A DNA stretch of 64,000 nt from Candidatus Palauibacter scopulicola (GCF_947581915.1 NZ_CANPWG010000014.1:7769-71768); one strand, 5' to 3'; shown: positions 2,638-28,763, counted from the first letter of the stretch. The notes: generated by a model not told the origin, from the sequence alone. Translations and numbers: made by a program.

Positions 2638-2856
2638 CTAGTCCCGGAGGCGCTCCGCCTGCACCGCGGCGATCACGCCCCACACCGCCGCTCCCACCGC
2701 GAGGCCGGTCCCGATCCAGCGGCCGACCTCCGCCCAGCGGCCGGGCCGTCCGCTCCGCCAGGGTCGGGTGATCTCGCTCCGCCAGTACTCCACCTCGTCG
2801 GTGACGATCTCCCGGGCCACTTCCGCCACCGGTCCGGCCAGCCGCCGGGCATCCAT
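2638..2856 (-). CDS. small tail-anchored membrane protein (72 aa), hypothetical
   Basis: Very high GC3. Starts 4 nt after the stop of the upstream SDR gene on the same strand. Has a C-terminal TM helix (GTGLAVGAAVWGVIAAV). Confidence 0.45.
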   Translation of the reverse strand: MDARRLAGPVAEVAREIVTDEVEYWRSEITRPWRSGRPGRWAEVGRWIGTGLAVGAAVWGVIAAVQAERLRD

Positions 2857-2860
2857 GCGC

Positions 2861-3670
2861 TCAGTCCCCCGGTGGCCTGGAGCCGACGAAGTCCTCGCCT
2901 CCGTCCACGCGGATCGTGTTTCCCGTCATCCATCCCGTTTCGGGCGCGGCGAGCGCGACCATGCACCGGGCCACGTCTTCCGGGGTTCCGAGTCGCCCGT
3001 GGGGGTTCTGGGCCGCGGCTTCGGCGATCATGTGTTCCGCGCCGGGAATCTTGCGAAGCGCGGGCGTATCGGTCACGCCGGCGCGGATCGAGTTGACGGT
3101 GATGCCCTTCGTCGCGAGTTCGAGCGCGAGTTGGCGGCAGTGCGATTCGAGCGCCGCCTTGGCCGCGGAGACGGCGCCGTAGGAGGGGATCACGCGGTCG
3201 CCGCCGGAGGAGGTCATGGCGAAGATCCGGCCGCCTTCGCCCAGCAGCCCGCGCTCGAGCAGCCCCTGGGTCCAGTAGACCAGCGTGTGGGCCATGACGT
3301 CCAGCGTCATGTTCATCTGCTCGGGGCTCATCCCGGGCGCATCGTCCGGCACGTAGGGGCGCAGGGTTCCGAAGGCCAGGGAGTGCATCAGCACGCGGAC
3401 GGATCCCGGCCCGGCGCCTGCGGCGATTTCGTCCAGCACCCGGTCGCGCTTCTTCGCCGAAGCCGCGTTCACGTTGAAGAACATCGCGCGCCGTCCGCGC
3501 GACTCGATCAGCGCCCGAATCTCTCCGACGTGGGCGAGCCCCGCTCTCCGGTCCAGGTGTACCCCGTAGATGTCGTAACCGGCTTCGGCGAACGCGAGTG
3601 CCGCCGCTTCGCCAAAGCCGCTCGAGGCTCCGAGAATCAACGCGCCAGGCGCAGAATCCGTCACTCGCAC
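2861..3670 (-). CDS. SDR-family enoyl-ACP reductase-like (FabL/FabI-like) oxidoreductase
   Basis: N-terminal Rossmann ILGASSGFGEAAALAFAEAGYDIY, catalytic Y-x7-K (SYGAVSAAKAALES), HSLAFGTLRP substrate loop. Architecture parallels B. subtilis FabL. Confidence 0.7.
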   Translation of the reverse strand: MRVTDSAPGALILGASSGFGEAAALAFAEAGYDIYGVHLDRRAGLAHVGEIRALIESRGRRAMFFNVNAASAKKRDRVLDEIAAGAGPGSVRVLMHSLAFGTLRPYVPDDAPGMSPEQMNMTLDVMAHTLVYWTQGLLERGLLGEGGRIFAMTSSGGDRVIPSYGAVSAAKAALESHCRQLALELATKGITVNSIRAGVTDTPALRKIPGAEHMIAEAAAQNPHGRLGTPEDVARCMVALAAPETGWMTGNTIRVDGGEDFVGSRPPGD

Positions 3671-4290
3671 CCCTCCGTTCGTCGTCCGCTAAAGGGCCAT
3701 CCCCCGGTCTCGGCCACCCCGCGCGAGCCGGAGCGCACAGCATAGCCGCCCGCCCCCCCGGCTGCACGGTCCGGCGCCCTCCAGCCGCGGGCGCAAAAAC
3801 CCGGCGTCGACGCCGCTCGAACGCCGACGCAGCGGGGCTTCCCACCGCTGCCGGACCCCCAACGGCGACGCATCCGGCGAGCGGGCCGCGGATCGGCGGC
3901 AATCCATATTTTTTGAAAAAAATCATGCACGCCCCGGTCCTTTCGAGTCGCCGTCACAGCTCGTTCATCGCCGCGTGTGACATGCATGAACGCTGCATGC
4001 GAGCGCTGCCGCCACGCCGTGGACCAGCGGCACAATCCACACATGATCGGGAGTTTTGGACGATCATTCAACAGTCACGTAACGTACTGTTTCACAAATC
4101 ATTACGACGTAGCTGCACGACCCCCCCAATACCCGGGGGGATGGATCGTCCGCTTGCAGGCGCGGGAACGTCGATCCTATCCTCAAGGCGCGATGGGAAA
4201 TGCACGGCCCCTGATTGCCGCGGACCTCCGGGATCCGTTCGGATACAGAGAGCGAAACCCTCGAATTTTCTTGCGAGTGTGCCCCTGACA

Positions 4291-4473
4291 ATGATGGCAT
4301 CATCCGACTGTAGCCTCGTCAACGTCGTCGTGGATCTCCCCAAGGAGCTTGCCGCGGATGTGGAGGCCGTGCGCCAGCGAGATCCCGAGTTCCTCGAGCG
4401 TGCCATTCAGTATGTGCTGGCCCGCCGCATCATCTTCGAAGAACTCAAGCCCCCCGCCTCGAGACACCGCTGA
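4291..4473 (+). CDS. small protein (60 aa); I predict a ribbon-helix-helix-like fold (beta strand then two helices); hypothetical
   Basis: C-terminal part of ORF 3598..4473; the upstream part of that ORF is low-GC non-coding. High GC3 from ATGATGGCA at 4291. The pattern LVNVVVDLPKEL / AADVEAVRQRDPEFLERAIQYVLARR fits a strand-helix-helix. Confidence 0.45.
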   Translation: MMASSDCSLVNVVVDLPKELAADVEAVRQRDPEFLERAIQYVLARRIIFEELKPPASRHR

Positions 4474-4608
4474 AGGAGAAGGCCGGCGAGCCCGCGTCGG
4501 CGAAGATTTCTTTGTGGATCGCGGTTCCGGCCGCGACTCGCCAACCGTTGACGCCCGTCCCCCCCGGGGCTACATCGCGCAGGGAGTGGTGAGCGGGGAG
4601 GTGAGGGG

Positions 4609-5010
4609 TTGGCCAGCGATTGCGAGCCGAGTATAGCCGTGTCCTCCGATACGGAGCGTCCAGCGCCCGGTCGGGATGCCGAGAGGGGATCGGAGTCCGA
4701 CGAAGCCGTACTGCGGGCCAAATACGCCGACTACTGCTCGGCTCAACTCACCGAAGTATTCCTCTCCCTGTCCGAAGAGCGCATCTACGAGATCGTGGAA
4801 GAGGAAGCCCGCGCGCAGGAGTTCGGCCAGGAGCGCCTGGGGTTTCAGACGATGGTCCGACTCGCGACCAAGCGACTCCGGGAGAGCGTGCCGCTGCCCG
4901 ATTTCGAGACGTGGCGCCGCGACTACGAAGCTGCCCCTGAAGAGTATGAAGCATACCTGATGGGCCTGTGGCGGCAGCGTTCGGAGGAGGAGGCCCCGGA
5001 GACCGATTGA
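4609..5010 (+). CDS. hypothetical acidic protein (about 130 aa)
   Basis: ORF with high GC3 and no recognisable family. The start may be an internal GTG. Same strand as, and between, the small RHH-like gene and the GT-C gene. Confidence 0.45.
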   Translation: MASDCEPSIAVSSDTERPAPGRDAERGSESDEAVLRAKYADYCSAQLTEVFLSLSEERIYEIVEEEARAQEFGQERLGFQTMVRLATKRLRESVPLPDFETWRRDYEAAPEEYEAYLMGLWRQRSEEEAPETD

Positions 5011-5033
5011 GTCGCGGTGGAATCGGAGGGGGG

Positions 5034-5345
5034 ATGCCTGAAGACCAGCACGACGGAGCCGACAGCGCCGAGGAAGGACGCCCCCAACTGCGGATGTGGG
5101 ACGAAGCGGGCCAGGAGACCGCCATCGGCAGCCTCGACGACGGGGAACGCCGGTGGAAGATCCTCGTCATCGCCGAACCGGTCGCCGAAGACCTCGTCCG
5201 GGGCTGGCTCTCCTTTCGACTCGACGACGAGCGGTACGACACGGCTCCGGTGATCATGGAGGAAACCGTGGCGCGCGTCGTCGAGCGGGCCGTTGAACTC
5301 CCCGAACCCATGCTGCGACAACTCTTCAGTTCGGCTCGGCGGTGA
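5034..5345 (+). CDS. hypothetical protein (103 aa)
   Basis: Start chosen at MPEDQ (5034) to avoid overlapping the previous gene. The stop overlaps the start of the next gene at 5342 (ATGA-style coupling). Confidence 0.45.
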   Translation: MPEDQHDGADSAEEGRPQLRMWDEAGQETAIGSLDDGERRWKILVIAEPVAEDLVRGWLSFRLDDERYDTAPVIMEETVARVVERAVELPEPMLRQLFSSARR

Positions 5346-6691
5346 CGTCGGCGGGGTCACCCGCTGACACAGGCGCAGGCCGGCCAGGCTGGCTGTGGCT
5401 CCTCGTGGCCGTCGAGGCGGCCGCGCTCTGGGGTATGGCCTGGGGTGGATCGGGCACGCCGTGGCCGGCGATGCCGCTGTGGGTCGCGGCGTTCGCGGCC
5501 TACCTGGGTGCGGCCCGCTACGCCGCCGCGCCGCACCGGGCGGGTTCGATCCGCCGGCACGTGTGGACCGCCGGGATCGTCCTCCGGGTGGGCGTCTTCC
5601 CCGCGGCGCCCGCCCTTTCCGAGGACATCTACCGGTACATCTGGGACGGCTGGGTTCAGGCCAACGGCGTGAACCCCTACGCCCATCCCCCCTCGGCGTC
5701 GGCGCTCGAGGAGCTGCGCACCGCGTGGTGGCCGCTCATCAATCACGCGGACGTCTCGACGATCTATCCGCCGGGGGCGCAGATCGTCTTCGCGCTCCTG
5801 GCCTCGGCCGGCCCCGCGTGGTGGATCTTCAAGCTGGGGTGGCTCGCGGCCGACCTGCTGGTTGCGCGGCTCATCGACCGGCTGTCATCCGGCCGCGGCG
5901 CGCTTCCGCTGCTGCTCTATCTCTGGTCTCCGCTCGTCGTCGTCGAAGTCGCCTGGAGCGGGCACCTGGATCCGCTCGGGGTCGCGCCCATGCTGGGCGC
6001 CGTGGCGCTGGCCGGCAGCGCGGCGGTCCCGGCCTGGCGCTCGGGCGCCCTGCTGGGCCTCGGCGCCGCGGTGAAGTTCGCCCCCCTCGCCGCGCTCCCG
6101 GCTCTCTTCCGGCTGCGCGGCCCCGGGGCGCTCGCCGCCGCCGTCCTCGTGCCCCTCCTTCTCTATCTGCCCTACGTCGGCGCGGGGCCGGCCCTCTTCG
6201 ACGGTCTGCGGACGTACGCGGACGTCTGGGCGTTCAACGGCGGCCTCTACCGGGCCCTCGAACGGCTGCCGGGGCACCCCGACCTCGCGAAGTGGATCGG
6301 CGCGTCGGTCGTCGGCGCCATCGCCCTGCGCGCCGCGCTCCGCCGCTGGCCGCTGGAACGCGCCCTCCTGTGGACGGTCGGAGCCGCGCTCCTCCTCTCT
6401 CCGACCCTCCATCCGTGGTATCTGCTGTGGGTGCTCCCCTTCGCCTGTCTCTCGGCGAATCGGGGCTGGCTCCTGTTCAGCGGGACCGTGTTCCTCGCGT
6501 ACGCCGGGAGGGACGCCTACCTCGCCACGGGGGCGTGGCCGGAACCCGCCTGGCTGACGTGGCTGATCCACGGGACGCCGTTGGCCCTCCTAGCGTGGGA
6601 TGGCTGGCGCGGGCGGGGCTCTCAGGGACTCGCGCGCCGTGAGGGCGTAGCCCGCGGCGAAGAGGGCCGTGAAGGGCAGCACGGCGGGTGA
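5342..6691 (+). CDS. GT-C fold integral-membrane glycosyltransferase (DUF2029 / GT87-like mannosyltransferase family)
   Basis: At least 10 predicted TM helices. Conserved acidic motif SEDIYRYIWDG in the first loop, typical of polyprenyl-phosphate-sugar dependent GT-C enzymes. Translationally coupled to the upstream small ORF. Confidence 0.65.
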   Translation: MTSAGSPADTGAGRPGWLWLLVAVEAAALWGMAWGGSGTPWPAMPLWVAAFAAYLGAARYAAAPHRAGSIRRHVWTAGIVLRVGVFPAAPALSEDIYRYIWDGWVQANGVNPYAHPPSASALEELRTAWWPLINHADVSTIYPPGAQIVFALLASAGPAWWIFKLGWLAADLLVARLIDRLSSGRGALPLLLYLWSPLVVVEVAWSGHLDPLGVAPMLGAVALAGSAAVPAWRSGALLGLGAAVKFAPLAALPALFRLRGPGALAAAVLVPLLLYLPYVGAGPALFDGLRTYADVWAFNGGLYRALERLPGHPDLAKWIGASVVGAIALRAALRRWPLERALLWTVGAALLLSPTLHPWYLLWVLPFACLSANRGWLLFSGTVFLAYAGRDAYLATGAWPEPAWLTWLIHGTPLALLAWDGWRGRGSQGLARREGVARGEEGREGQHGG

Positions 6692-8023
6692 CCCGGCGAG
6701 CGCCGTGTTCACGACGGCGCCGGCGAGCGCCGCGGCGAGCGTCAGGCGCAGGAGCGCGGGCCCGCTCGAGAGCCGGACCCGATACGCCACGACGGGCTGG
6801 AAGCCGCGCTTCGGCGTGCGGACGAAGGGGGTGCGGGTTCCGCGGCAGGCCCGCGCGACGGCGAAGGTGAGCGGCACGCCGAGCCCCAGCCCGAGGAGCA
6901 GCGCTTCGGAGATGCGGCGCCCGAGGCGTCCGCGCCCGCGGATCCACCCGGCGGATCCGTAGAAGAGCACGAACGGGACGGTGGCGAGGAGCACGGCGGC
7001 CACATGGACGGCGGCCGGGAGGCCGAAGCCGGTCGCGGACGCCCACCCGGCCCCCGCGAGCGCCGCCGCCATCGTGAGCGTCAGCGGATGGACGACGTGT
7101 CCCACGAGATGGGCCGTCGCCTCGAACTTGATCGCCGCCGGCACGGGGGCGCGCCAGATCCGCGGCAGCAGCTTCCGTGCGCTCTGGATGCCGCCCTGCG
7201 TCCACCGGCTCTGCTGGATCTCCACCGCGCGCAGATTCGCCGGCAGCTCGGCGGGGACCCGGACGTCGTCCCGGTACACGAAACGCCAGCCCGCGAGCTG
7301 GGCGCGGTAGCTGAGATCGACGTCCTCGGTCAGGGTGTCGCTCTGCCACCCCCCCGCCGCCCGCACACACGCCTTGCGCCACATTCCGCCGGAGCCGTTG
7401 AAGTTGAAGAAGAGGCCGGCCCGGTATCGCGCTTCGTGCTCGATCGCGAAGTGCGCGTCGAGGAAGAGGGCCTGGGCTCGCGTCAGCCAGCTCGCGTCGG
7501 GCGAGAGGTGGTCCCAGGCCGCCTGCACCGCCCCCACGCCCGGGTCCGCGAAGGGGGGGAGCAACTCCCGGATCAACTCCGGGGGCGGAACGAAATCCGC
7601 GTCGAGTACGAGCAGGAAGTCGCCGCGGGCGAGGGATACGCCGTGGGCGAGCGCGCCGGCCTTGAACCCCTCGCGGGATCCCCGCCGCACGTGCCGGATG
7701 TCGATCCCGCGCGCCCGCCACTCGCGCACCCGCCTCGCCGCGATCGCCACCGTCTCGTCGTCCGAGTCGTCGAGCAGTTGGATTTCGAGGCGGTCCGCGG
7801 GATAGCGCAGGCGGCAGGCCGCGTCGATGAGCCGTTCGACGACGTTCGCTTCGTTGAAGACCGGTAGCTGTACCGTGACGACCGGGAGCGGGCCGGGCCA
7901 GGTGCGCGCCTCCACCCGGGCGGGCCGGCGCATCCGCAACCACAGCAGGCGCAGCCGGTGCGCCCCGAAGGGGGCGAGGAGGGCGAGAAGCGCCAGGTAC
8001 GCCAGCGGTCCGATTTCGCTCAT
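6590..8023 (-). CDS. GT2-family processive beta-glycosyltransferase (NodC/HasA/IcaA/PgaC-like synthase)
   Basis: All the synthase signatures are present: D,D (LLDDSDDETV), DxD (LVLDADF), TED (TEDVDLSYR) and QxxRW (QQSRWTQG). One N-terminal and several C-terminal TM helices. The start overlaps the stop of the upstream amidohydrolase gene by 4 nt. Confidence 0.8.
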   Translation of the reverse strand: MSEIGPLAYLALLALLAPFGAHRLRLLWLRMRRPARVEARTWPGPLPVVTVQLPVFNEANVVERLIDAACRLRYPADRLEIQLLDDSDDETVAIAARRVREWRARGIDIRHVRRGSREGFKAGALAHGVSLARGDFLLVLDADFVPPPELIRELLPPFADPGVGAVQAAWDHLSPDASWLTRAQALFLDAHFAIEHEARYRAGLFFNFNGSGGMWRKACVRAAGGWQSDTLTEDVDLSYRAQLAGWRFVYRDDVRVPAELPANLRAVEIQQSRWTQGGIQSARKLLPRIWRAPVPAAIKFEATAHLVGHVVHPLTLTMAAALAGAGWASATGFGLPAAVHVAAVLLATVPFVLFYGSAGWIRGRGRLGRRISEALLLGLGLGVPLTFAVARACRGTRTPFVRTPKRGFQPVVAYRVRLSSGPALLRLTLAAALAGAVVNTALAGSPAVLPFTALFAAGYALTARESLRAPPAPAIPR

Positions 8024-9336
8024 GGGCGGGGTTCGATCTCTTCCGTCCCGATCCGACCCGTCCCGATCTCATCCGCGCGGAAGTCGAGCCGGTCGAGCGC
8101 GATCGTGCCGTCGCTCATCACGAACAGCACGTCCTGATACTGGCCGATGTCATCGAGCGGGTTGCGGTCGAGGACGAGAAGATCCGCCTCGAACCCCGCC
8201 GCGACCCGGCCCGTCCGGTCCGCGATGCCGAGCAACTCCGCCGCGACCGTGGTCGCGGACCGGATCGCATCGAGTTCGCTCAGCCCGATGCCCACGAACT
8301 CCATCAGTTCGTGGCTCATGCGGAGGACGCTCCCGGACCCGTACCCGGTGTCCGTGGCGGCGACGAGCGGCACCCCGAGTGCATGCGCCGCCGCCGCCGT
8401 CTCCCGGACGCGCGGGAGCATGTGCCGTCCGCGCACCTGGAGCACCGGGTCGTCGTAGTCGCCGCCGGGCACCGTGAGGTCGGACACGACCGCGATCGTC
8501 GGCACCAGGTAGGTGCCCCGCTCCCGCATGAGGCGGAGCGTTTCGTCGCGGAGATACGTCCCATGCTCGATGCTTCGCACGCCGGCCGCGACCGCGGCCC
8601 GGCCGCCGCGGTCTCCGTGCGCGTGCGCGGCGACGGGGACGCCGTCGCGCGAGGCCTCCGCCACCAGCGCCGACAGTTCGGCCTCCGTGAAGAACGGCTT
8701 GCGGGGGTCCGTTTCCGGCAGACCGGCTCGTTCAGTCGCGTTCACCTTGATGAAATCCACGCCGCGATCGAGCATCGCGCGCGCCATCCGCCCCATCGCC
8801 TCGGGGCCTCGCACGTCGCGCCCGAGGAGATCGCCGAGCCCCGGCTCATCGAGGAAGAGTCCCTCGGCCGGCCGGGGCCGCACGTGGTAGCCCGCGGCGA
8901 GGATCTCCGGGCCGGGAAGCCCGCCGCCCAGGAACAGTTCCCGCAGGCCGACGTCGGCGAAGAACCCCGCCCCCATGCTGCGCGCCGTAGTGACGCCGGA
9001 GAGCAGCGCTCGGCGAGCCGCCTCGAGCGTCCCGATGTGGACATGGGCGTCGATCAGGCCGGGAACGAGGAAGCGGCCGCCGAGGTCGATCGTGCGCACC
9101 TCGGCAGGCGCCTCTCCCCCTTCCGCCACGGAAACGATGACCCCCTCCCGCACGACGACCGTCGCGTTCGAGAGGACGCCGCCCGTCGCCGGATCGATCA
9201 CCGAGGCGCCGGTGAAGGCGATCGGCTCGCTCTGGCCGGCCGCCGCCGGGGAAGCCAGGCAGATGAACAGGGCGCCCACGCAGCGGGCGAGTCGGAAGCG
9301 TCGGGACGCGGTGGCCGCTGAAGCGATGACGGACAT
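8020..9336 (-). CDS. secreted metal-dependent amidohydrolase-superfamily protein
   Basis: Signal peptide (ALFICLASPAAAGQ). Amidohydrolase motifs: LVPGLIDAHVHIG (HxH metal site), ...AAHAHGDRG..., ...SIEHGTYL..., ATDTGYG. Confidence 0.75.
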   Translation of the reverse strand: MSVIASAATASRRFRLARCVGALFICLASPAAAGQSEPIAFTGASVIDPATGGVLSNATVVVREGVIVSVAEGGEAPAEVRTIDLGGRFLVPGLIDAHVHIGTLEAARRALLSGVTTARSMGAGFFADVGLRELFLGGGLPGPEILAAGYHVRPRPAEGLFLDEPGLGDLLGRDVRGPEAMGRMARAMLDRGVDFIKVNATERAGLPETDPRKPFFTEAELSALVAEASRDGVPVAAHAHGDRGGRAAVAAGVRSIEHGTYLRDETLRLMRERGTYLVPTIAVVSDLTVPGGDYDDPVLQVRGRHMLPRVRETAAAAHALGVPLVAATDTGYGSGSVLRMSHELMEFVGIGLSELDAIRSATTVAAELLGIADRTGRVAAGFEADLLVLDRNPLDDIGQYQDVLFVMSDGTIALDRLDFRADEIGTGRIGTEEIEPRP

Positions 9337-9434
9337 CGGAACCTCCGGGATCTGGACCGTAAGGCACCAAGATGCCTCCGACCGCGGGCCGGGGACAGGA
9401 GCGCGCCGCCATCGATTCGGCTAGCTTGCCCCCG

Positions 9435-11018
9435 ATGCGGCAAACGACGACACCACTGCCACGCGGGACCGCCGCCGGCCGGGAGCCGCTCCCGTTCCCG
9501 CTGCGCGTCGCCGCCATCGACGTGGGGTCGAACGCGTTTCGCTTCGTCGCGGCCGAGTTCAGCGACCCCGACCATTACGTGGAGCTGGCCTCGGAGCGGG
9601 TTCCCGTCCGGCTGGGACATTCGGCCTTCCTCACCGGCGAACTTTCGTCCTCCGCCATCGACCGGACCGTCGAGGGATTCCGGCGCTTCCGGGCGGAAAT
9701 CGATCGCCTGGGCATCGAGCATGTGCGCGCCGTGGCGACCAGCGCGGTCCGGGAGAGCCGCAACGGCGCCGATCTCGTCCGCCGCGTCGAGGAGGACGCG
9801 GGAATCCGGCTCGATCTGATCTCCGGCACGGATGAGGCGCGGCTCGTGTGGATGTCCGTGAAGCAGCGGTTCGATTTCGGCGACGCCAAGTGGATGCTCG
9901 TGGACCTCGGCGGCGGAAGCGTCGAGGTCTCGCTGGCGGATCGGTCCGGGATCATGTGGAGCGAGTCGCACCGGATGGGATCGGTCCGGCTGCTCGAGGA
10001 GCTCACGGGGTCGGACGATGCGCCCGCGCACTTCGCGAGCCTGCTCGCGGAATACGCCGCCACGCTCCGCATTCCGCACGCGAGCAAGCACTGGACGCCG
10101 GTGCAGCTGATCGCCACCGGCGGCAATATCGAGGAACTCGCGCGCCTCGCGGGCCACAGCGCCGCCGACGGCACCCGCCGCATCGCGCGGGCCGAACTCG
10201 CCATGGCGATCGAGGAGTTCTCCCGCCTCTCCTACAGCCAGCGCATCGGCCGACTCGGCCTGCGCGAGGATCGGGCCGACGTGATTCTCCCCGCCGCGAT
10301 CGTGTACGACCGCGTCGCCGAACTCGCGGGCGCCGAAGAGATTCTCGTCCCCGGCGTCGGCGTGAAGGAGGGCGTGCTGTTCGACCTCGTCGACGAGTTG
10401 ACGAGCGGCGCCGGTTTCGGGCGGCTGGAGCGGATCGTCCACGAAGGAGCGCTCACGCTCGGGCGCCGGTACCTCTTCGACGAGGATCACGGGCGACACG
10501 TCGCGTCGCTGGCCCTCTCCCTGTTCGACCAGCTCACCGAGGTCCACGGCCTCGAACCGCGCGACCGGCGGATCCTGCTGGCGGGGGCGATGCTGCACGA
10601 CATCGGGCAGCACATCTCTTACGCGAGACACCACAAGCACTCGCTCTACCTGATCCTTCACAGCGAGATCCCGGGCATCGCGCCGAACGAGCTCCCGCTC
10701 GTCGCGCTGGTGGCGCGCTACCACCGGCGGGCCGAACCGCGGCGCGGCCACTACCTGTACCGCGACCTGGATCCTCCCGACCGCGAACGGGTGGAGCGGC
10801 TCGCCGCCCTCCTTCGCATCGCGGACTCCCTCGACCGCGAACACCTCCGGCGCGTGAAGAGCGTCGAGGCGCGCGTGCACGAGCACACGCTCGAACTGCG
10901 TCTCGAACGGAGAGGAAGCGTGCTCCTCGAGCAGTGGGCGCTGCGCAAGAAGGGGAAGCTCTTCGCCCGCATCTTCGGCCTCGAACCCTACGTCACCTTC
11001 GACTTGGCCTCCGACTGA
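9435..11018 (+). CDS. ppx: Ppx/GppA-family exopolyphosphatase / guanosine pentaphosphate phosphohydrolase with C-terminal HD domain
   Basis: AAIDVGSNAFRFVAAE ... ISGTDEARLVW ... VDLGGGSVEV (actin-like ATPase fold motifs of Ppx/GppA). C-terminal HD domain (MLHDIGQHISYARHHKHS). Start at MRQTT (9435) within ORF 9372..11018. Confidence 0.8.
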   Translation: MRQTTTPLPRGTAAGREPLPFPLRVAAIDVGSNAFRFVAAEFSDPDHYVELASERVPVRLGHSAFLTGELSSSAIDRTVEGFRRFRAEIDRLGIEHVRAVATSAVRESRNGADLVRRVEEDAGIRLDLISGTDEARLVWMSVKQRFDFGDAKWMLVDLGGGSVEVSLADRSGIMWSESHRMGSVRLLEELTGSDDAPAHFASLLAEYAATLRIPHASKHWTPVQLIATGGNIEELARLAGHSAADGTRRIARAELAMAIEEFSRLSYSQRIGRLGLREDRADVILPAAIVYDRVAELAGAEEILVPGVGVKEGVLFDLVDELTSGAGFGRLERIVHEGALTLGRRYLFDEDHGRHVASLALSLFDQLTEVHGLEPRDRRILLAGAMLHDIGQHISYARHHKHSLYLILHSEIPGIAPNELPLVALVARYHRRAEPRRGHYLYRDLDPPDRERVERLAALLRIADSLDREHLRRVKSVEARVHEHTLELRLERRGSVLLEQWALRKKGKLFARIFGLEPYVTFDLASD

Positions 11019-11189
11019 TTGGACCTGGCCCCGCGACCGACTCGACCGGGCCTCCGACCGATTCGCCCCGGCCTCTGGACCAACGGAGGCGTCCGAAACA
11101 AGCGGGACGGTGGGTGCAGGGCTTATAATTCAGGCCCTGTGTTCGCAAACGGCCCGCGAGGTGGCCGGAAGAAAGTGGCGGAGAGCCGT

Positions 11190-13625
11190 ATGTCATCCGA
11201 GTCGAAAGAGACGTCGAACGAGACATCGCGTCGACCGTGGGTTCACCACGGGAGCCGCCGTCCCGCCGGGATTTCCCCGACGGCGTCGTCCCGCTCCGCC
11301 GCCGTGAACCCCCCGCCGCACGAGGCCCCGACGCCGGGGGCCGCGACACGGGAGGTCGAGACACCCGAGACCCCGCCGCGCGAGGCCGCTGCGCCCGTCG
11401 AGGTCGCGCCGGCCCCGGAGAACGGTGCCGACCCCGGGCCGCGTCCGTCCGCCCCGCGCGTCGGCCACCGCGTGCAGGACGTCCCTGTGCTCCCGCGCGC
11501 CGTGGCGCCGAAGCCCGTGCCCGAAGGCGCGAAGCCGAGCCACCCGTCGCTCTATTTCAACGCGGAACTCAGTTGGCTGGACTTCAACTGGCGCGTGCTC
11601 TACCAGGCCATGGACGAGCGGACGCCGCTGCTGGAGCGGCTCCGCTTCCTCGCGATCACGGAGAACAACCTCGACGAATTCGTGATGAAGCAGGTCGGCG
11701 GCCTCAAGCGCGTGCTGGGGGCGGGCGTGGTGAAGCCATCGCCGGACGGCCTGGGGCCCGCGGAACAGCTGGACCTCGTGCGCGAGGGCGTCCGCACCAT
11801 GCGGACCCGGCTGGCCGAGGTGTGGGAGGGCGACCTCCGGCCGCGCCTCGCGGCGGAACTCGACATCGCCGTGCGCGACTTCGAGGACCTGAACGACCAG
11901 GAACGCGAGCATGTGCGCCGCGTGTTCGCGGATCGGATCTATCCGGTCCTCACGCCGCTGGCCGTGGACCCGGGGCACCCGTTCCCCTTCCTGTCCAACA
12001 TGAGCCTCTCGCTCGCCCTCATGCTCGAGCACCCGGAACGCCGGACCCGCCACTTCGCCCGGGTGAAGATCCCCACGGCGCTGCGCTGGGTCGAACTCCC
12101 GGAGAGCGGGCACGTAGTCCCCGTCGAGCAGGTCGTGCGGCACTTCGCGGGCGAGCTCTTCCGGGGGATGACGATCGAGAGCGCTTCGCTCTTCCGCGTC
12201 ACCCGGAACGCGGACGTGGCCCGGGACGAAGAGGTGGCGGACGACCTCCTGCAGATGATCTCCGAGGAGATCCGCGAGCGGCGCTTCGCGCGCGTGGTTC
12301 GCCTGGAGGTGGAGCCGGGCATGCCCGACGACGTGCGGCAATTCCTGGTTCGCCAGCTCGAGCTGGATGAGGAAGACCTGTACGAGATTCCGGGCCTGCT
12401 CGAGATGTCGGGTTTCTGGCAGATCGCGGCCGAGGGCCCCTGGGAGCACCGGCACGAACCCTGGGAGCCGATGATCCCTCCCCGCCTGATCCGCGAAGGC
12501 GAGACGGAGGACCGTCCCGACATCTTCACGGTGATTCGGGCGGGCGACCTCATGGTGCACCACCCGTACGAGTCCTTCACCGCGACGGTGCAGCGGTTCA
12601 TCGAGGAGGCCGCCGCGGACCCCGCGGTCGTGGCCATCAAGCAGACGCTCTACCGGACGGCGGAGCACTCGCGGATCATCGCCGCGCTGGTGCGGGCGGC
12701 CGAGGCGGGCAAGGCGGTCGCCGTGCTCGTGGAGGTCACGGCCCGCTTCGACGAGGCCGACAACATGGAGTGGGCGTCCGTGCTGGAGGAGGCCGGCGTC
12801 AACGTCACGTACGGGCTCGTCGGGCTGAAGACGCACGCGAAGGTTGCCCTCGTGGTCCGCGAGGAAGGGGACGAGATCCGCACCTACTGCCACATCGGCA
12901 CCGGCAACTACAACTCCGAGACCGCGCAGATCTACGCGGACCTCGGGATCCTCACGGCGCGCCCGGAAATCGGCCGCGACGCGGTGAACCTGTTCCATTA
13001 CCTGACCGGATACGCCCCCGACCAGCAGTACGAGGAACTCATCGTGGCTCCCCGCGACCTGCGACGGGCCATCACCGCCCGGATCGAGCGCGAGATCTCG
13101 CACGTCGAGGCCGGCCGGAAGGGCCGCATGATCATGAAGATGAACGGTCTCGACGACCCGAAGATGATCCGCGCCCTCTACGCCGCGTCCGCCGCCGGCG
13201 TGAAGATCGACCTCATCATCCGGGGCCAGTGCCGGCTCCGCCCCGGGATCCCCGGCTTCAGCGAGAACATCCGGGTGCGCAGCATCGTCGGACGGTTCCT
13301 GGAGCACGACCGGATCTTCTGGTGGGAGAACGACGGGAGCCCCGAGGTGTGGATCGGGAGCGCGGACTGGCGCCGCCGAAACCTCGACAACCGCGTCGAG
13401 GTGCTGCTGCCCGTCCGCGACAAGCGGATCCGGAAGCGCCTGCGCAAGACCCTGCGCTTCGCCCTCCGCGACAATCAGCGCGCCTGGGAACTGCGGCCGA
13501 CGGGAGAGTACGTGCTGTGCGAGCCCGCGCCGGACGCGCGTCCCATCGACTACCAGAGCCGGATGCTGAAAGCGGTCCGGAAGCGCCGCCGCAAGGTGGA
13601 CGATCACTGGAGCGCCTCGCACTGA
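11190..13625 (+). CDS. ppk: polyphosphate kinase 1, with a ~120-aa Pro/Ala-rich N-terminal extension
   Basis: LYFNAELSWLDFNWRVL...RLRFLAITENNLDEFVMKQ (PPK1 N-domain). Two PLD-like HKD motifs (HAKVALV..., ...HDRIFWW). Start ATG 11190 is preceded by GGAG; an alternative internal GTG start is possible. Confidence 0.85.
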   Translation: MSSESKETSNETSRRPWVHHGSRRPAGISPTASSRSAAVNPPPHEAPTPGAATREVETPETPPREAAAPVEVAPAPENGADPGPRPSAPRVGHRVQDVPVLPRAVAPKPVPEGAKPSHPSLYFNAELSWLDFNWRVLYQAMDERTPLLERLRFLAITENNLDEFVMKQVGGLKRVLGAGVVKPSPDGLGPAEQLDLVREGVRTMRTRLAEVWEGDLRPRLAAELDIAVRDFEDLNDQEREHVRRVFADRIYPVLTPLAVDPGHPFPFLSNMSLSLALMLEHPERRTRHFARVKIPTALRWVELPESGHVVPVEQVVRHFAGELFRGMTIESASLFRVTRNADVARDEEVADDLLQMISEEIRERRFARVVRLEVEPGMPDDVRQFLVRQLELDEEDLYEIPGLLEMSGFWQIAAEGPWEHRHEPWEPMIPPRLIREGETEDRPDIFTVIRAGDLMVHHPYESFTATVQRFIEEAAADPAVVAIKQTLYRTAEHSRIIAALVRAAEAGKAVAVLVEVTARFDEADNMEWASVLEEAGVNVTYGLVGLKTHAKVALVVREEGDEIRTYCHIGTGNYNSETAQIYADLGILTARPEIGRDAVNLFHYLTGYAPDQQYEELIVAPRDLRRAITARIEREISHVEAGRKGRMIMKMNGLDDPKMIRALYAASAAGVKIDLIIRGQCRLRPGIPGFSENIRVRSIVGRFLEHDRIFWWENDGSPEVWIGSADWRRRNLDNRVEVLLPVRDKRIRKRLRKTLRFALRDNQRAWELRPTGEYVLCEPAPDARPIDYQSRMLKAVRKRRRKVDDHWSASH

Positions 13626-13647: not shown

Positions 13648-13700
13648 GGGCCGGGTCCAGGCCGGGTCCAGGGCCGGGTCCAGGCTGGGTCTAGGCTGGG
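13648..13700. repeat. about 5 tandem copies of an 11-12-bp unit (CCGGGTCCAGG / CTGGGTCTAGG) in the ppk1-phoU convergent intergenic region, overlapping the phoU stop codon
   Basis: Read directly: ccgggtccagg ccgggtccagg gccgggtccagg ctgggtctagg ctgggtccgg. Confidence 0.8.
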
Positions 13701-14359
13701 TCCGGTGAGCCCTCCTGGTGCCGGATCGTGATTCCCTGGACCATGTAGACGACGTCCTCGCCGATGTTCGTCGCGAGGTCGCCGATCCGTTCGAGATTGC
13801 GGCCGATGAGGATGACCTGCAGGCACGCCGACAGGTTGTAGTCCGGCATATGGGTGATCATCACACGGCTCAGTGAATCCTGGAGCTGGTCCAGCCGGTC
13901 GTCCCGCGCGATCACGGAGCGTGCGTCGTCCGCGTTCCGGTGGACGAAGGCATCGAGCGCATCCCGCAGCATCGCCCGGGCCATGCGGCTCATCTCATCC
14001 AGTTCGGGCGGAACCGGAACCTTCTTCTCCGCCTTCGCCAGCCGTTCGGCCGCCTCGGCGATGTTGACCGCGTGGTCGCCGATCCGCTCGAGGTCGTTGT
14101 TGATCTTGAGGACCGTGACGAGCACGCGCAGGTCGCTCGCCACCGGGTGATGGAGCGCGAGGATCTCCACCGTGGATTCCTCGACCTCCACTTCGGCCCG
14201 GTCGATGGCGTCGTCCGCCGCCCGGATCGGTTCCGCATCCACCGCGGGCTGGCCCACGAGCGCCATCGCGCGACGCACCAACTCCTCGATGTCGTGCGCC
14301 ATCCGGTGCAGGGTCCGCGTGACGTCGTCCAGCCGGTCGTCGAACTGCCTGAGGGCCAT
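13691..14359 (-). CDS. phoU: phosphate signalling complex protein PhoU
   Basis: Two PhoU repeats with NDLERIGDHAVNIAE and RNLERIGDLATNIGE motifs. Start set at MALRQFDD (14357-14359), which avoids overlap with pstB. Confidence 0.85.
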   Translation of the reverse strand: MALRQFDDRLDDVTRTLHRMAHDIEELVRRAMALVGQPAVDAEPIRAADDAIDRAEVEVEESTVEILALHHPVASDLRVLVTVLKINNDLERIGDHAVNIAEAAERLAKAEKKVPVPPELDEMSRMARAMLRDALDAFVHRNADDARSVIARDDRLDQLQDSLSRVMITHMPDYNLSACLQVILIGRNLERIGDLATNIGEDVVYMVQGITIRHQEGSPDPA

Positions 14360-14372
14360 CCGCCGCGACCCG

Positions 14373-15134
14373 CTAGCCCAGCCGGCCGGTGATGTAGGCC
14401 TCGGTCCGCTCGTCCTCGGGGTTGGTGAACAAGCGCTGGGTCTCCTTGTATTCGAGCAGTTCGCCCATGTAGAGGAAGGCCGTGTCGTCACTGATGCGAG
14501 CGGCCTGCTGCATGTTATGCGTCACGACCACGATCGTGTAGTCACCGCGCAGGTCTCCGATGAGGTCCTCGATGCGGCCGGTCGCGATCGGGTCGAGCGC
14601 GCTCGCGGGTTCGTCCATGAGGAGGACTTCCGGTTCCACCGCCAGCGCCCGCGCGATGCAGAGGCGCTGCTGCTGGCCGGCCGACAGCCCGAGGGCGTCC
14701 GCATCGAGCCGGTGGCTTACCTCGTCCCACAGCGAGGCCGCTCGCAGCGACGCTTCCACGCGGTCGCCGATGTCGTCCTGGAAGCCGTTGATCCGCAGGC
14801 CGAAGGCGATGTTCTCGAAGATCGACTTCGGAAAGGGATTCGGCTTCTGGAACACCATCCCGATCGAGCGCCGTACATCCGCCGGGTCGACCTCGGCCCC
14901 GTACAGGTCCCGCCCCCGGAACAGCACCTGCCCGGTGATGCGGGCGGCCGGCACGAAGTCGTTCAGTCGATTGAAGCAGCGCAGGAGCGTGCTCTTGCCG
15001 CAACCCGACGGCCCGATGAAGGCCACCACCCGGTTTTCCGGTATCCGGAGCGAGACGTCGTCGATCACGCGCGTCTCACCGTAGCGGACACTGAGTCCGA
15101 CGGTCTCCAGGACCGTATTCGACGACACCGTCAC
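14373..15134 (-). CDS. pstB: phosphate ABC transporter ATP-binding protein PstB
   Basis: Walker [13 protein letters not shown] signature [15 protein letters not shown], Walker B LLMDEP. 253 aa, typical of PstB. Confidence 0.9.
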
Positions 15135-16015
15135 CTCTCGTATCGGTTACGAATCAGAATCGCGGCGGCATTCATCAGCAGAAGCACGCCCAGCAGTACC
15201 ACTATCGCTCCCGCCGCCAGCGCATGGAACTCCTCCCGCGGGTCGGCCGTCCAGTTGAAGATCTGGATCGGCAGGACCGTGAAGGGGTCCATGACCGAGA
15301 CCGGATCGAAGGCGATGAACGTCAGCGCCCCGATGATCAGGAGCGGCGCCGTCTCCCCTCCCGCGCGCGAGAGCGCGAGAATCGTCCCCGAGAGGATCCC
15401 GGGCAGGGCCGCCGGAAGCACATGATGCCGGATGGCCTGCCAGCGCGTGGCGCCGAGCGCGTACGCGGCTTCCCGCAGAGAGTCGGGGACCGCGCGGATC
15501 GCCTCGCGCGCCGCGACAATCACGAGCGGGAGTACGAGGAGCGACAGCGTCGCCGCACCCGCGAGCAGGCTCCGTTCCAGCGACAGGAACCGGACGAACA
15601 CGGCGAGACCCAGAAGGCCGTAGACGATGGACGGCACTCCGGCCAGATTCGCGATGTTCGTCTGCAGCAGGTTCGTGAGTCGGTTCCTCGGTGCGTATTC
15701 CTCGAGGTACACCGCGGCGCCCACTCCCAGCGGGAAGGACATCGCGGCCACCAGCGTCAGCAGCCAAAGGCTGCCGAGGATGGCGGAGCGAATCCCGGCC
15801 CGGTCGGGGAAGCGCGACGGAAAAGTCACCAGAAAGTCGGGTGATAGCGTCGGCAGCCCGGTCGCCAGGATATGGACGAGCAGGACGAGGAGCGACGCGA
15901 CCGCGAACGCGACCGCGAACCGGCAAAGCCACTTGAACCGGACGCCCGCGCGACGGCGGGCCGCGACCCGCGGTTCGAAGCGGCCGCTGCGAGGCGGAGC
16001 GGCCCCGGGATTCAC
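15131..16015 (-). CDS. pstA: phosphate ABC transporter permease PstA
   Basis: 6-TM permease with the EAA-like loop ([21 protein letters not shown]). Position between pstC and pstB. 4-nt overlaps on both sides. Confidence 0.85.
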
Positions 16016-16899
16016 GGGTGGATCTCCCGAAAACGGCCGATCAGGCGCTGACTCAGGAGGTTCAGGGCCAGCGTGATGAGGAAGAGGAACAGGCCGACCG
16101 CGAACAGGGTCCGGTACTCGACCGTCCCGGATGGGGCATCGCCCAGACTCGCCTGCACGATGTACGCCGTCATCGTCTGAACGCTCTCGAGGAGGTCGAG
16201 CGTCATCCTCGGCGTGGCGCCCGCGGCCAGCGTCACGACCATAGTTTCCGCGATGGCGCGCGAGACCGCCAGAATGAAACTGGCGGCGATTCCCGGCAGG
16301 CCCGCCGGCACCACGATCCGGGTCGAGACCTCGAACCGCGTGGCTCCGAGACTGTACGCGGCCTCGCGCAGGGAGCGGGGGACCGCGCTCAGCGCATCCT
16401 CGGACAGGGACGACACCATCGGAAGGATCATGATGCCCACGACGAGGGCCGCGCTTGCGGCATTGAAGACTCCGGCGGCGGGGAAGACCGCGCGGAGAAT
16501 CGGAGTCACGAAGGCAACGGCGAAATAGCCGTAGACCACGGTCGGGATGCCCGCCAGAATCTCGAGCGCGGGTTTGACGATCCGCTTCGTCCGCCTCGAC
16601 GCGTACTCACTGAGATAGACCGCCGTCGCCAGACCGGCCGGGAGCGCAACGAGCAGCGCCCCCGCGGCGATGAGGAGGGTCCCGTTCAGGAGCGGGAGGA
16701 TGCCGAAAGACCGCGGCGCCAGATCCGGAGACCAGCGCGCGCCCGCGAGAAACTCGAGGGGCGACACGTCCGAGAAGAACCCCAGCGACTGCGTGGCGAG
16801 TACGACGACGATGCCGACGGTCGTGAGGACGGAGAGCGCCCCGCAGCCAAGAAAGAGCGCTCCCATCACGCGCTCGACGACTCTCGACCGAAGGCTCAT
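16012..16899 (-). CDS. pstC: phosphate ABC transporter permease PstC
   Basis: Permease with [14 protein letters not shown] motif. Order pstS-pstC-pstA-pstB. Confidence 0.85.
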
Positions 16900-16908: not shown

Positions 16909-17853
16909 CTAGCCGATGCGGGCTCGAAGTGTGGCATACGCTTCCGGTTCGAGCGGCATGTATCCCGCTTCGGGGATCAGGGTCGCCGCGTGGTCGATGT
17001 AGAAGCTGACGAAGGCGTTCACTTCGGGCCGTACGAGCGCATCGCGGCGAACGTAGATGTACATCGGACGAGCCAGCGGTGTGTACGTACCGTCGAGGAT
17101 CGTTTCACGGGTCGGCGCGACGCAACCTCCGCCCGCGTCGACTTCCAGGGCGCGGAGGTGTCCCCGGTTGTCCTCGAAGTAGGCGTAGCCGAAATAGCCC
17201 AGCGCACCCGGATCGCCGCTCACTCCCGCCACCAGCACGTTATCGTCCGTGCTCGCCGCGTAGTCGTGCCGGCTGGCTCCCTCCTCGCCCACCACGGCCG
17301 CCGTGAAGTAGTCGAACGTGCCCGAGTCGGTATCGGGTCCGTAAAGTCTGAGGTCTTCATCCGGCCAGGCCGGGCGGACCTGGCGCCAATTCACGATATC
17401 CGACCCCGGCGTCCATAATCGCCGGAGTTCGGTCACGCTGACGCAGTCGACCCAGTCGTTGGAGGGGTGCACCACGACCGTGAGCCCATCCCATGCGACC
17501 TGCAGTTCGACCGGCTCGATGCCGTGTGCCGCGCAGGACGCGGCCTCCGCATCGTTGATGCGCCGCGATGCGTTGGCGATCTCCGTTTCGCCGTTGCAGA
17601 ACCTCTGAAATCCGCCGCCGGTTCCGGATACTCCCACCGATACGCGCACCGCGCGCCGGTAGGCGATCTGAAACTCCTCCGCCATCGCCTGACTGATCGG
17701 AAAGACCGTGCTCGAGCCATCGATCTCGATCAGGCCCGACAGGCTTCGGTCCGAGTCGGCGCCGCAACCCGCAAGAGAAACGGCCGCCAGCGCGGCCCAT
17801 GCCGTTCCGTGGACCCATGCCGTTCCGGGGTGCAGCGGCCGGTCACGCCGGGA
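16909..17853 (-). CDS. pstS: phosphate-binding lipoprotein PstS
   Basis: Lipobox AAVSLAGC then IEIDGSSTVFPISQAMAEEFQ (PBP type 2 phosphate-binding signature). Start set at MSRRDR (17851-17853) inside the longer ORF. Confidence 0.85.
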   Translation of the reverse strand, partial: SRRDRPLHPGTAWVHGTAWAALAAVSLAGCGADSDRSLSGLIEIDGSSTVFPISQAMAEEFQIAYRRAVRVSVGVSGTGGGFQRFCNGETEIANASRRINDAEAASCAAHGIEPVELQVAWDGLTVVVHPSNDWVDCVSVTELRRLWTPGSDIVNWRQVRPAWPDEDLRLYGPDTDSGTFDYFTAAVVGEEGASRHDYAASTDDNVLVAGVSGDPGALGYFGYAYFEDNRGHLRALEVDAGGGCVAPTRETILDGTYTPLARPMYIYVRRDALVRPEVNAFVSFYIDHAATLIPEAGYMPLEPEAYATLRARIG

Positions 17854-19936: not shown

Positions 19937-19957
19937 CTCACGTTCCGCGTCAAGGGG

Positions 19958-19972
19958 TCTCAGGAATCCTGA
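19958..19972. promoter_or_regulatory. 15-bp perfect palindrome CTCAGGA-A-TCCTGAG, 22 bp upstream of the phoB start codon
   Basis: Read directly. Arms are exact reverse complements. Confidence 0.4.
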
Positions 19973-19991
19973 GCCTCGTCTGCCGGCGGTA

Positions 19992-20009
19992 TCGTAACAC
20001 TTTCGTAAC
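19992..20009. promoter_or_regulatory. Pho-box-like element: two identical 7-bp direct repeats TCGTAAC separated by 4 bp (11-bp periodicity), 56-73 bp upstream of phoB in the phoB/TonB-receptor divergent region
   Basis: atCGTAACacttTCGTAACc read directly. This architecture (7-bp direct repeats, 4-bp spacer) is that of PhoB boxes, and the site is at the head of the pho-pst operon. Confidence 0.45.
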
Positions 20010-27621: not shown

Positions 27622-27655
27622 CAGGCGCCGGCAGGTGGAAGACAAGGAGAAGCGA

Positions 27656-28720: not shown

Positions 28721-28763
28721 ACCCGTAGCGAGCAGGCGAGGTCCGGGCGGCGTGTACGCGGGA

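Follow-up and report, generated by a model that had tools for sequence, protein, structure and literature searches.

We describe here a locus of three genes in Candidatus Palauibacter scopulicola, a member of the Gemmatimonadota, analyzed within a 64,000-nucleotide stretch of its genome (GCF_947581915.1). The whole stretch is called the window, and all coordinates are positions in it. The genes encode a membrane glycosyltransferase of the GT-C class, a membrane glycosyltransferase of family GT2, and a secreted amidohydrolase, and our concern is which of them work together and on what product. The window has a GC content of about 70%, and the nearest named proteins, at 82-84% identity, come from Candidatus Palauibacter sp. 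The GT-C gene (5342-6691, plus strand) specifies an all-transmembrane, PimE/ALG3-like protein of 449 residues that matches Pfam GT87. The GT2 gene (6590-8023, minus strand; 477 residues) matches Pfam Glyco_tranf_2_3 and is, by predicted fold, of the BcsA-core type. The amidohydrolase gene (8020-9336, minus strand; 438 residues) matches Pfam Amidohydro_1 and is of the Cc2672/ochratoxinase type by phmmer search of the PDB. All three had been called in a first-pass annotation of the sequence, and the calls are borne out by the open reading frames (ORFs), by the GC content at third codon positions (0.89-0.92 in all three, the pattern of real genes in this genome) and by the numerous homologues of each.

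Two overlaps join the genes, both of them described in the first-pass annotation. The stop codon of the amidohydrolase gene and the start codon of GT2 have the four nucleotides ATGA (8020-8023) in common. At its other end, GT2 converges on GT-C, and the two genes overlap by 102 bp (6590-6691), close to the earlier figure of about 100 bp. The stop codons, read directly, are TAG at 6590-6592 on the reverse strand for GT2 and TGA at 6689-6691 for GT-C. The convergent overlap is present in 24 genomes, at lengths of 4-111 bp: nine genomes have 102 bp, the remaining members of the genus 59-111 bp save for one with 4 bp (G020), and three other genera 17-68 bp. In one genome beyond the 24 measured (G034), GT2 and GT-C lie 2.7 kb apart. 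On the GT2 strand the overlap encodes the last transmembrane (TM) helix (residues 446-466), but on the GT-C strand only a low-confidence, disordered tail; for this reason it has the appearance of read-through into an antisense frame with few stop codons, and not of a device. A scan of 4500-9600 found no promoter-like site; the one terminator-like site found, against 1.3 expected, lies within GT2.

The GT2 Enzyme

Classification by hidden Markov model (HMM) places GT2 in Glyco_tranf_2_3 (1.4e-29). The protein is built of an N-terminal TM helix, a GT-A domain, a QxxRW interface helix and C-terminal TM helices, with an FxRTPKxG loop. The signature motifs noticed at first sight (DDSxD, DAD, TED, and QQxRW) proved invariant in a 54-sequence alignment, and they align to those of BcsA in the HMM alignment. 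Against PDB sequences, the family profile finds BcsA at 1.8e-25 (92.8 bits) and PcManGT at 6e-18, the latter a BcsA-like minimal GT2 whose PDB entry describes a mannosyltransferase. Matches to DPMS (2e-8, 36.4 bits), ceramide glucosyltransferase (1e-5, 27.6 bits) and ArnC (1e-5) are weaker. The AlphaFold2 (AF2) model (pLDDT 91.9, pTM 0.91), compared by VIA-align, superposes over residues 1-475 on residues 228-698 of E. coli BcsA (Z 34.6, root-mean-square deviation 3.6, 442 residues aligned) and on residues 95-581 of R. sphaeroides BcsA (Z 32.2), followed by PcManGT (Z 30.8), hyaluronan synthases (Z 26-28) and CesA8 (Z 26). Since the superposition on BcsA is full-length, GT2 amounts to a BcsA core without the PilZ domain, for which it has no Pfam match, and with a single N-terminal TM helix. 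The two proteins share a GT-A domain with DxD, TED, and QxxRW, and their TM and interface helices superpose; they differ in the PilZ domain and the N-terminal helices, and are only about 17-18% identical. The motifs and the predicted fold thus support the original view of GT2 as a membrane-integrated enzyme of the cellulose synthase type.

Cellulose synthases carry a UDP-binding FxVTxK gating loop ahead of the penultimate TM helix (PMC8306620, in excerpt). In GT2 the invariant F400-x-R402-T403-P404-K405-x-G407 occupies the corresponding place, in a loop (395-419) that precedes the penultimate TM helix (420-443). Compared with the gating loop, which lies between IF3 and TM7, the F, T, and K match and the V does not, and the equivalence is positional only.

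GT2 falls below every NCBIfam equivalog cut-off, including those for CelA (TIGR03030, 90.3 bits versus 699; PRK11498, 52 versus 992), PgaC/IcaA (TIGR03937, 91.3 versus 422.3), NodC (TIGR04242, 34 versus 550) and HpnI (43 versus 310). Unlike in bcs systems, BcsB, BcsZ, and BcsC partners were not found near GT2, and its pairing and fusion with a GT-C is not a bcs feature. No CE4 deacetylase gene lies at the locus. Around 80 loci from a wider search, 20 representatives of the 25 most recurrent neighbor clusters were scanned, and none is a BcsB-like, PgaB-like, outer-membrane export, or periplasmic partner.

The fold, BcsA/HAS/CesA-like throughout, is in keeping with a GT2 that makes a free, secreted beta-glycan, mannan- or glucan-like, to which GT-C would add side branches in the periplasm without any lipid anchor. 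In one homologue (P0243) a GH26 domain is attached (29.6 bits versus a cut-off of 20.2), some others carry large beta-propeller, FG-GAP, or LRR domains as fusions, and we take the family to resemble the plant CslA/CslC backbone synthases. We nevertheless regard a free glycan as unlikely: the 20 representatives of recurrent neighbor clusters scanned include no gene for outer-membrane export or for a periplasmic partner, GT-C has no soluble carbohydrate-binding domain, and the structures nearest to GT-C all use lipid-linked acceptors.

The main rival to the mechanism that we favor, which is set out below and has a lipid-primed chain made by GT2 and finished by GT-C, treats GT2 as a non-processive lipid glycosyltransferase of the MgdA (Sll1377) kind. 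It would make a glycosyl-diacylglycerol, possibly a phosphorus-sparing one, which a separate flippase would bring outward and GT-C would extend to a lipoglycan, by the logic of phosphatidylinositol mannoside (PIM) and lipomannan synthesis. MgdA yields a single-sugar lipid, and we know of no reported GT-C partner for it. Among the nearest named clusters of the ESM Atlas is one automatically named 'Beta-monoglucosyldiacylglycerol synthase family' (score 0.99). MgdA is also a GT2 integral membrane protein in which TM helices flank the catalytic domain (PMC3916417; PMC3276260, both in excerpt). For MgdA membership proper, the evidence is this automatic cluster name. The profile is far closer to BcsA (by the bit scores above) than to ceramide glucosyltransferase or DPMS, the invariant gating-loop-like FxRTPKxG and the full BcsA-like set of TM helices suit chain translocation, and the GH26 fusion also speaks against a lipid glycosyltransferase. 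We rate this rival as rather improbable; points from the neighborhood that bear on it are taken up below.

The GT-C Enzyme

GT-C passes the Pfam GT87 cut-off by a narrow margin (27.9 bits versus 25) and scores below that of NCBIfam MptB (21.7 versus 40). Its profile finds no PDB sequence at E <= 1, so that its structural relatives come from fold comparison alone. The AF2 model (pLDDT 90.1 overall, under 50 in the tail, 429-449) is helical up to residue 422 and has no soluble or periplasmic domain; the last 20 or so residues are disordered. VIA-align finds ALG3 (Z 24.7), GPI mannosyltransferase I (Z 22.9), PIG-U (Z 19.7), ALG6 (Z 18.8) and PimE (Z 18.6), the last with the highest identity among the fold matches (21%). 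The first loop, between helices 67-85 and 95-107, carries the motif SEDIYRYIWDG, in which D95, R98, W101, and G103 are invariant and D95 may be catalytic.

The enzymes among these fold matches take their sugar from a polyprenyl-phosphate donor and transfer it to a lipid-linked glycan. Judging from the family and from an AglJ/PpgS-like GT2 that neighbors GT-C in relatives, the donor would be polyprenyl-phosphate mannose. That the class works on lipid acceptors argues for a lipid acceptor here, and favors the MgdA-like alternative as well.

Distribution, Adjacency, and Fusion of the Pair

Three samples were examined: a set of 41 genomes of relatives, an even set of 121 genomes from the phylum, and the 80 wider loci. 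In the relatives set, 23 of the 24 members of the genus (g1) carry GT2 and GT-C orthologues. Both occur in genera g2 and g5-g8, and in g11 GT2 lies at a contig end. Genome G004 and genera g3, g4, g9, and g10 yielded neither. With orthologues counted in the phylum set at E <= 1e-60 for GT2 and at E <= 1e-20 for GT-C (profile A2), GT2 is present in 19 genomes, GT-C in 18, and both in 13. The two genes are adjacent in 12 of these 13, convergent in 10 and in tandem in two. GT2 alone occurs in six genomes, and only a more distant GT-C in five. Outside the phylum, full-length members of the GT2 family at 39-46% identity are found in Acidobacteriota, Myxococcota, Verrucomicrobiota, Elusimicrobiota, Bacteroidota, and others. 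When the flanking sequence of the 80 wider loci was examined, a GT-C was present in 18, in divergent, tandem, or convergent orientation, including loci of Thermoanaerobaculia, Marinacidobacterales, and Myxococcota.

The two enzymes are also found as one polypeptide. Among the longer homologues listed, 12 of 120 (about 935-957 residues) have GT87/PF26314 behind the GT2 domains, one being named from Kofleriaceae and one from Planctomycetota. A Pfam scan placed GT87 C-terminal to GT2 in three of four fusions tested, and the GT-C of the window aligns with residues 571-929 of one of the fusions (P0269) at 33% identity (E 5e-24), first-loop motif included. The module is thus dispersed in this genome and fused elsewhere. 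A shared function is strongly indicated by the fact that the genes stay neighbors in differing orientations and also occur fused, and we consider it highly probable that GT2 and GT-C are a functional pair and that the amidohydrolase stands outside it. The convergent GT-C had been counted with GT2 from the start; co-occurrence, conserved adjacency, and natural fusions now tie the two together more strongly than was then assumed.

The GT2 family has other fusion partners, namely GH26, DUF547, TPR, PD40/Tol-like propellers and FG-GAP/PQQ propellers, and includes leucine-rich-repeat proteins of about 2200 residues. Forms of about 1190 residues, named from Dormibacterota and Verrucomicrobiae, show no extra Pfam domain.

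A search of the literature on GT87/DUF2029, GT-C, and cellulose synthase-like GT2 enzymes found no description of a GT2/GT-C pairing among the papers listed, in agreement with the earlier statement that the system appears uncharacterized. The paper on the ecogenomics of Palauibacter (PMC10469786) makes no mention of amidohydrolase, peptidase, glycosyltransferase, exopolysaccharide, or glycolipid. The GT2/GT-C module is real and, it appears, an undescribed combination of known kinds of enzymes.

The Amidohydrolase

In the first-pass annotation the functional partner of GT2 was the amidohydrolase. GT2 was viewed as an exopolysaccharide synthase whose polymer would be processed, for example de-N-acetylated in the manner of NagA, by the coupled secreted enzyme. 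Membership of the amidohydrolase superfamily holds (Amidohydro_1, 1.1e-37). The N-terminus, SRRFRLARCVGALFICLASPAAAG, is a twin-arginine-like signal as read by eye, and reading also finds the metal-ligand motifs DAHVH, FIKV, AHAHG, IEHG, and ATDTG, which presumably make up the binuclear-metal signature (HxH, K, H, H, D). By phmmer the nearest PDB entries are 9kov (2.1e-50), 3mtw (Cc2672; 2e-42), 3be7 (1.2e-37), and 4c5y (6.7e-30), with NagA structures at about 1e-5. The likeness to Cc2672/Sgx9260-type L-Xaa-Arg/Lys carboxypeptidases and to ochratoxinase-type enzymes (E 2e-42 to 2e-50) covers residues of about 103-412. The best NCBIfam model is the Caulobacter 'Xaa-Pro dipeptidase' (XaaProDiPepCaul), and here the protein differs from the group in falling below the equivalog cut-off (218 bits versus 500). 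It is far from the NagA models (TIGR00221, 51.9 bits versus 225.65; PRK11170, 32.3 versus 483), and its Pfam match to NagA_N is weak (19.7 bits, below the cut-off of 27). On sequence grounds the enzyme is assigned to the Cc2672/'Xaa-Pro dipeptidase'/ochratoxinase carboxypeptidase clade, and the idea of a NagA-type de-N-acetylase fails. The host genome (G000, 3.6 Mb) has 50 Amidohydro_1 matches, which makes the GT2-linked amidohydrolase one member of a large expansion. Across the genus, a first-look protein search gave 52-101 superfamily candidates in 23 of 24 relatives and 32 in the other (G024).

The linkage to GT2 was counted in the 24 genomes of the genus that have a GT2 orthologue. The amidohydrolase adjoins GT2 in 17 of them. 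The 4-nt overlap is found in nine of these 17 and gaps of 2-208 bp in the other eight, the gaps being projected from alignment to Met1 of the window protein and not from annotated starts. The linkage is absent or broken in six. Where no amidohydrolase is adjacent, GT2 directly adjoins ppx (G020, G024), phoU (G018), or other DNA (G017). In G001 an amidohydrolase orthologue (59%) is on another contig with neither ppx nor GT2 nearby. In G003 the order phoU-ppk-ppx-amidohydrolase is kept, the next 5 kb are without GT2, and GT2 is on another contig. A further genome (G008), in which GT2 is at a contig start, was left out of this judgment. G004 has an amidohydrolase orthologue, while neither glycosyltransferase was found there. 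Outside the genus, the amidohydrolase is at none of the five loci fetched, and it is at one of the 80 wider loci.

Because the linkage is not kept in relatives, we judge the amidohydrolase to be a neighbor and not part of the glycosyltransferase module. It looks like a periplasmic enzyme of the carboxypeptidase/amidase type that came to lie between ppx and GT2 in one sub-lineage, and a dipeptidase-type enzyme with unrelated neighbors in other genomes is what the first-pass annotation itself had named as refuting the functional pairing, which we reject. That proposal can draw on the ATGA overlap in this genome and eight close relatives, on the signal-peptide-like N-terminus, and on the sub-threshold NagA_N match; set against them are the clade, the gaps and broken linkages just listed, its near absence outside the genus, and the 50 or so Amidohydro_1 matches in the genome. 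Processing of a GT2 polymer by the amidohydrolase is largely refuted by synteny, and we hold it to be very improbable.

A Candidate Donor Synthase and Lipid-handling Neighbors

A second, small GT2 of the soluble type lies at 28683-29507 (plus strand) and is a candidate polyprenyl-phosphate hexose synthase. Its best NCBIfam matches, all below cut-off, are AglJ (1.3e-28), dolichyl-phosphate hexose transferase (2.5e-20), and PpgS (1.2e-8). The same three models are the best matches of all four small GT2s tested, and small GT2s match DPMS (5mlz) in the PDB at about 1e-5. Three genomes (G009, G018, G020) have one copy each of the small GT2, adjoining GT-C. The gene at 28683-29507 is the sole good match in the host genome to such GT-C-adjacent small GT2s (39-42% identity): it is 39% identical to one that stands divergently beside GT-C at locus L049, and it is the best match in the genome to that of L031. 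In the window's own clade the small GT2 is absent from the GT-C locus. The gene at 28683-29507 probably supplies the donor of GT-C, as far as these sequence relationships go.

In Palauibacter relatives of about 82% identity (L049, 10679-11389; L032), a small AglJ/PpgS-like GT2 stands between GT-C and two small genes, and positions 5311-5342 of the window are the spot at which it is missing. Genome G005 (C1:3482143-3484178), a close relative, carries a second GT-C paralogue (30% identical), and directly behind it stands a small GT2 sharing 77% identity with the porin-linked copy of the window.

A separate donor synthase bears on the proposal that GT-C is fed by the large GT2 itself, acting as a polyprenyl-phosphate sugar synthase in the manner of ArnC/ArnT or GtrB/GtrC, with some other envelope molecule as acceptor. 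GT2 and GT-C pairs of the ArnC/ArnT logic are, as a matter of general knowledge, common; no small GT2 occurs at the locus in the window's clade; and PcManGT is among the best structural matches of GT2. An AglJ/PpgS-like small GT2 is, however, present at most Gemmatimonadota loci that have the pair, which would make a second donor synthase redundant, and the DPMS and ArnC matches of the large GT2 are weak next to that of BcsA. To our knowledge, the known polyprenyl-phosphate sugar synthases have neither the QxxRW and gating-loop-like motifs of the large GT2 nor its four to five TM helices at the C-terminus. There is accordingly little probability in this proposal.

The small GT2 follows a gene for a phosphate-selective porin O/P (27311-28720) and precedes one for a DUF547 protein with a lipoprotein-like signal (29504-30346, plus strand; Pfam DUF547, 2.2e-23), whose start overlaps the small GT2 stop. 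The DUF547 protein matches the C-terminal portion of P0254, in which GT2 and DUF547 are naturally fused, at 40% identity (5e-40), and at L052 a DUF547 gene lies beside the small GT2 and GT-C. No GH26-like or P0259-type tail was found as a separate neighboring gene in the loci searched.

In three other genera (L027, L030, L031) the order is small GT2 (PF00535 only, divergent), GT-C, large GT2, VTT/DedA, and a flippase-like LPG_synthase_TM gene. The best NCBIfam match of the flippase-like neighbor at L031 is glucosaminyl phosphatidylglycerol flippase (2.2e-15, below cut-off), and the flippase-like protein passes TIGR00374 (48.1 bits versus 43.2). For the DedA protein beside the pair in relatives the best NCBIfam match is UptA. 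By tblastn (E 1e-6), neither VTT nor flippase-like genes were detected in the 80 wider loci. A gene for CdsA is a recurrent neighbor of GT2 (seven loci). The CdsA gene, like the GpgF-like flippase gene and the DedA gene at the relatives' locus, is a point for the MgdA-like reading of GT2.

UPF0104 flippase-like genes accompany lipid glycosyltransferases in the gpgSDF operon of P. aeruginosa and the hexSDF operon of C. difficile, which include a deacetylase step reminiscent of the one first imagined here (PMC12713373, in excerpt). In the same excerpt GpgS is a GT4 enzyme, and GpgD is a cytoplasmic COG3233 deacetylase rather than a secreted amidohydrolase; a deacetylase of that kind is lacking here. 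GtrA/B/C, CsbB-GtcA-YfhO, and PpgS-Rv3779 are periplasmic glycosylation systems of three components that likewise combine a donor-making small GT2 with a GT-C transferase and a flippase-like protein, the last of which occurs in relatives in the present case. The present system differs from these three-component systems in that its flippase-like gene is of the UPF0104/MprF type, not GtrA, and is absent from the window locus, and in having an extra large GT2 of the synthase type as the conserved partner.

Phosphate Genes, Transcripts, and the Remainder of the Window

The pair lies next to genes of phosphate metabolism: ppx (9372-11018), ppk1 (11019-13625), and, on the minus strand, phoU (13691-14491), pstB/A/C (14373-16899), a likely pstS (16909-17919), a phoR-like histidine kinase (17843-19201), and a phoB-like response regulator (19241-20041). 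A TonB-dependent receptor follows (20217-23057). This neighborhood suggests that the GT2/GT-C pair is linked to phosphate limitation. The synteny of the pair with the phosphate genes holds within the genus only. GTGAC(G) repeats at about 11-bp spacing occur only in the intergenic region between phoB and the TonB receptor (one match versus 0.37 expected; 30 of 100 shuffles reach it), and a looser Pho-box pattern gives one match versus 1.88 expected. At 20085-20125 four GTGAC(G)/GTGTTT units spaced by 10-12 bp have a Pho-box-like layout that is statistically indistinguishable from chance. Upstream of GT-C or the amidohydrolase there is no Pho-box-like motif shared with the pho promoters. For the MgdA-like alternative, with its phosphorus-sparing lipid, the phosphate genes in the genus and the porin ahead of the small GT2 count in favor and the lack of a shared motif against.

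Transcript evidence comes from a sponge metatranscriptome library (X1), whose contigs cover 29 of 30 bins of 5000-9600 at 90-99% identity; the uncovered bin is 9312-9465. Contigs from related strains extend across all three genes, six of them at identities of at least 99%, 15 at 95-99%, and 34 at 90-95%, and two span the convergent GT2/GT-C junction. These contigs give neither strand nor level, and carry-over of DNA is possible.

Upstream of GT-C are two small conserved genes of no known family on the plus strand (4609-5010 and 4968-5345), recognized by their frame GC pattern and translations. They are kept across the genus at 42-93% (tblastn) and have no Pfam match, and the stop of the second overlaps the GT-C start as GTGA. 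A minus-strand ORF at 4748-5311 was rejected as a shadow frame (GC of 0.57/0.79/0.61 by codon position, low-complexity translation). Farther upstream, 3927-4600 is a stretch of lower GC (0.63 for 4001-5000) with an AT-rich patch, no convincing ORF and no Rfam match. An enoyl-ACP reductase-type short-chain dehydrogenase/reductase (FabI-like; adh_short_C2, 164 bits) is encoded at 2861-3670 on the minus strand, the real gene lying inside a longer ORF (2673-3926), and an OmpA-domain protein at 1030-2610. The only RNA gene found in the window, by Rfam and ARAGORN, is tRNA-Glu (CTC) at 30426-30498 on the minus strand.

Proposed Mechanism

The pair probably builds a sugar chain that is membrane-anchored or at the surface, and its product could be a lipid-primed glycan or a glycolipid. 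For a chain-forming synthase there are the BcsA-like fold and motifs, a profile far closer to BcsA than to lipid glycosyltransferases, and the one GH26 fusion. For a lipid acceptor there are the GT-C class, the flippase-like and DedA neighbors, the lack of export or periplasmic partners among the 20 cluster representatives scanned, CdsA, the Atlas name, and the precedent of PcManGT. The two lines of evidence are joined if GT2 makes a lipid-primed chain that GT-C finishes.

We infer the following scheme, including its sugars, acceptor, lipid priming, order of steps, and choice of donor synthase. GT2, as a minimal cellulose synthase core, would polymerize a nucleotide sugar into a beta-linked chain at the cytoplasmic face, starting probably on a membrane lipid, and would then move the chain across the inner membrane. 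At the periplasmic face the PimE/ALG3-type GT-C would add hexose, most likely mannose, to this membrane-held product. Its donor would be a polyprenyl-phosphate hexose made by the small AglJ/PpgS-like GT2, which adjoins GT-C in relatives and would here be the gene at 28683-29507. The outcome would be a membrane-anchored glycoconjugate, either a lipoglycan or a lipid-primed glycan. For the scheme as a whole we put the chances at about even.

Several points weigh against it. GT2 does not need GT-C, given that no GT-C is detectable within 8 kb on either side in 62 of the 80 wider GT2 loci and that six of the 19 phylum-set genomes with GT2 are without it. In most phyla GT2 stands alone among housekeeping genes, which is also a point for the MgdA-like rival. 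The fold and motifs of GT2 are those of free-polymer synthases, the GH26 fusion is easier to square with a free beta-mannan-like polymer than with a product anchored to lipid, and lipid priming is pure conjecture. The small GT2 is 20 kb from the pair in this genome and scores far below the NCBIfam cut-offs (AglJ, 100 bits versus 325; PpgS, 34.6 versus 370), and no close orthologue of the flippase-like gene was found in this genome (27% identity at best). Finally, the 4-nt overlap with the GT2 start in nine genomes means that the amidohydrolase and GT2 are probably co-transcribed here, and a local, recently acquired functional link between them may exist.

If GT2 does prime its chain on a lipid for completion by GT-C, a close parallel is the actinobacterial synthesis of PIM and lipomannan by PimE, MptB, and Ppm1, which shares a GT87-type GT-C, a small GT2 of the donor-synthase type, and a likely lipid-anchored acceptor. 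The differences are that the host here is a diderm, one of the Gemmatimonadota, and that the acceptor would be made by a cellulose synthase-like GT2 and not by the GT4 enzymes PimA/PimB.

Implications

Synthase-type GT2 enzymes (for cellulose, hyaluronan, chitin, or poly-N-acetylglucosamine) and GT-C enzymes, the periplasmic transferases that depend on lipid carriers, are as a rule assigned to separate pathways. The present results correct the earlier picture of the locus, in that the amidohydrolase, an unusual partner, is most likely no more than a neighbor of GT2. It is possible, though on balance we doubt it, that GT2 and GT-C form one machine, split between two genes here but fused in Myxococcota and Planctomycetota, making a synthase-translocated, lipid-anchored glycan that is finished periplasmically with polyprenyl-phosphate sugars. 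A conserved GT2/GT-C pair with natural fusions would represent a new way of building envelope glycoconjugates in widespread but mostly uncultured phyla (Gemmatimonadota, Acidobacteriota, Myxococcota, and Planctomycetota). A function would also be at hand for a large family of 'cellulose synthase family' proteins of about 480 residues, placed between the plant CslA-type polymer synthases and the cyanobacterial lipid glucosyltransferases. The product of a single GT2/GT-C machine would be a diderm counterpart of actinobacterial lipomannan, made by an undescribed synthase-dependent route and, in this genus, maybe tied to phosphate limitation.

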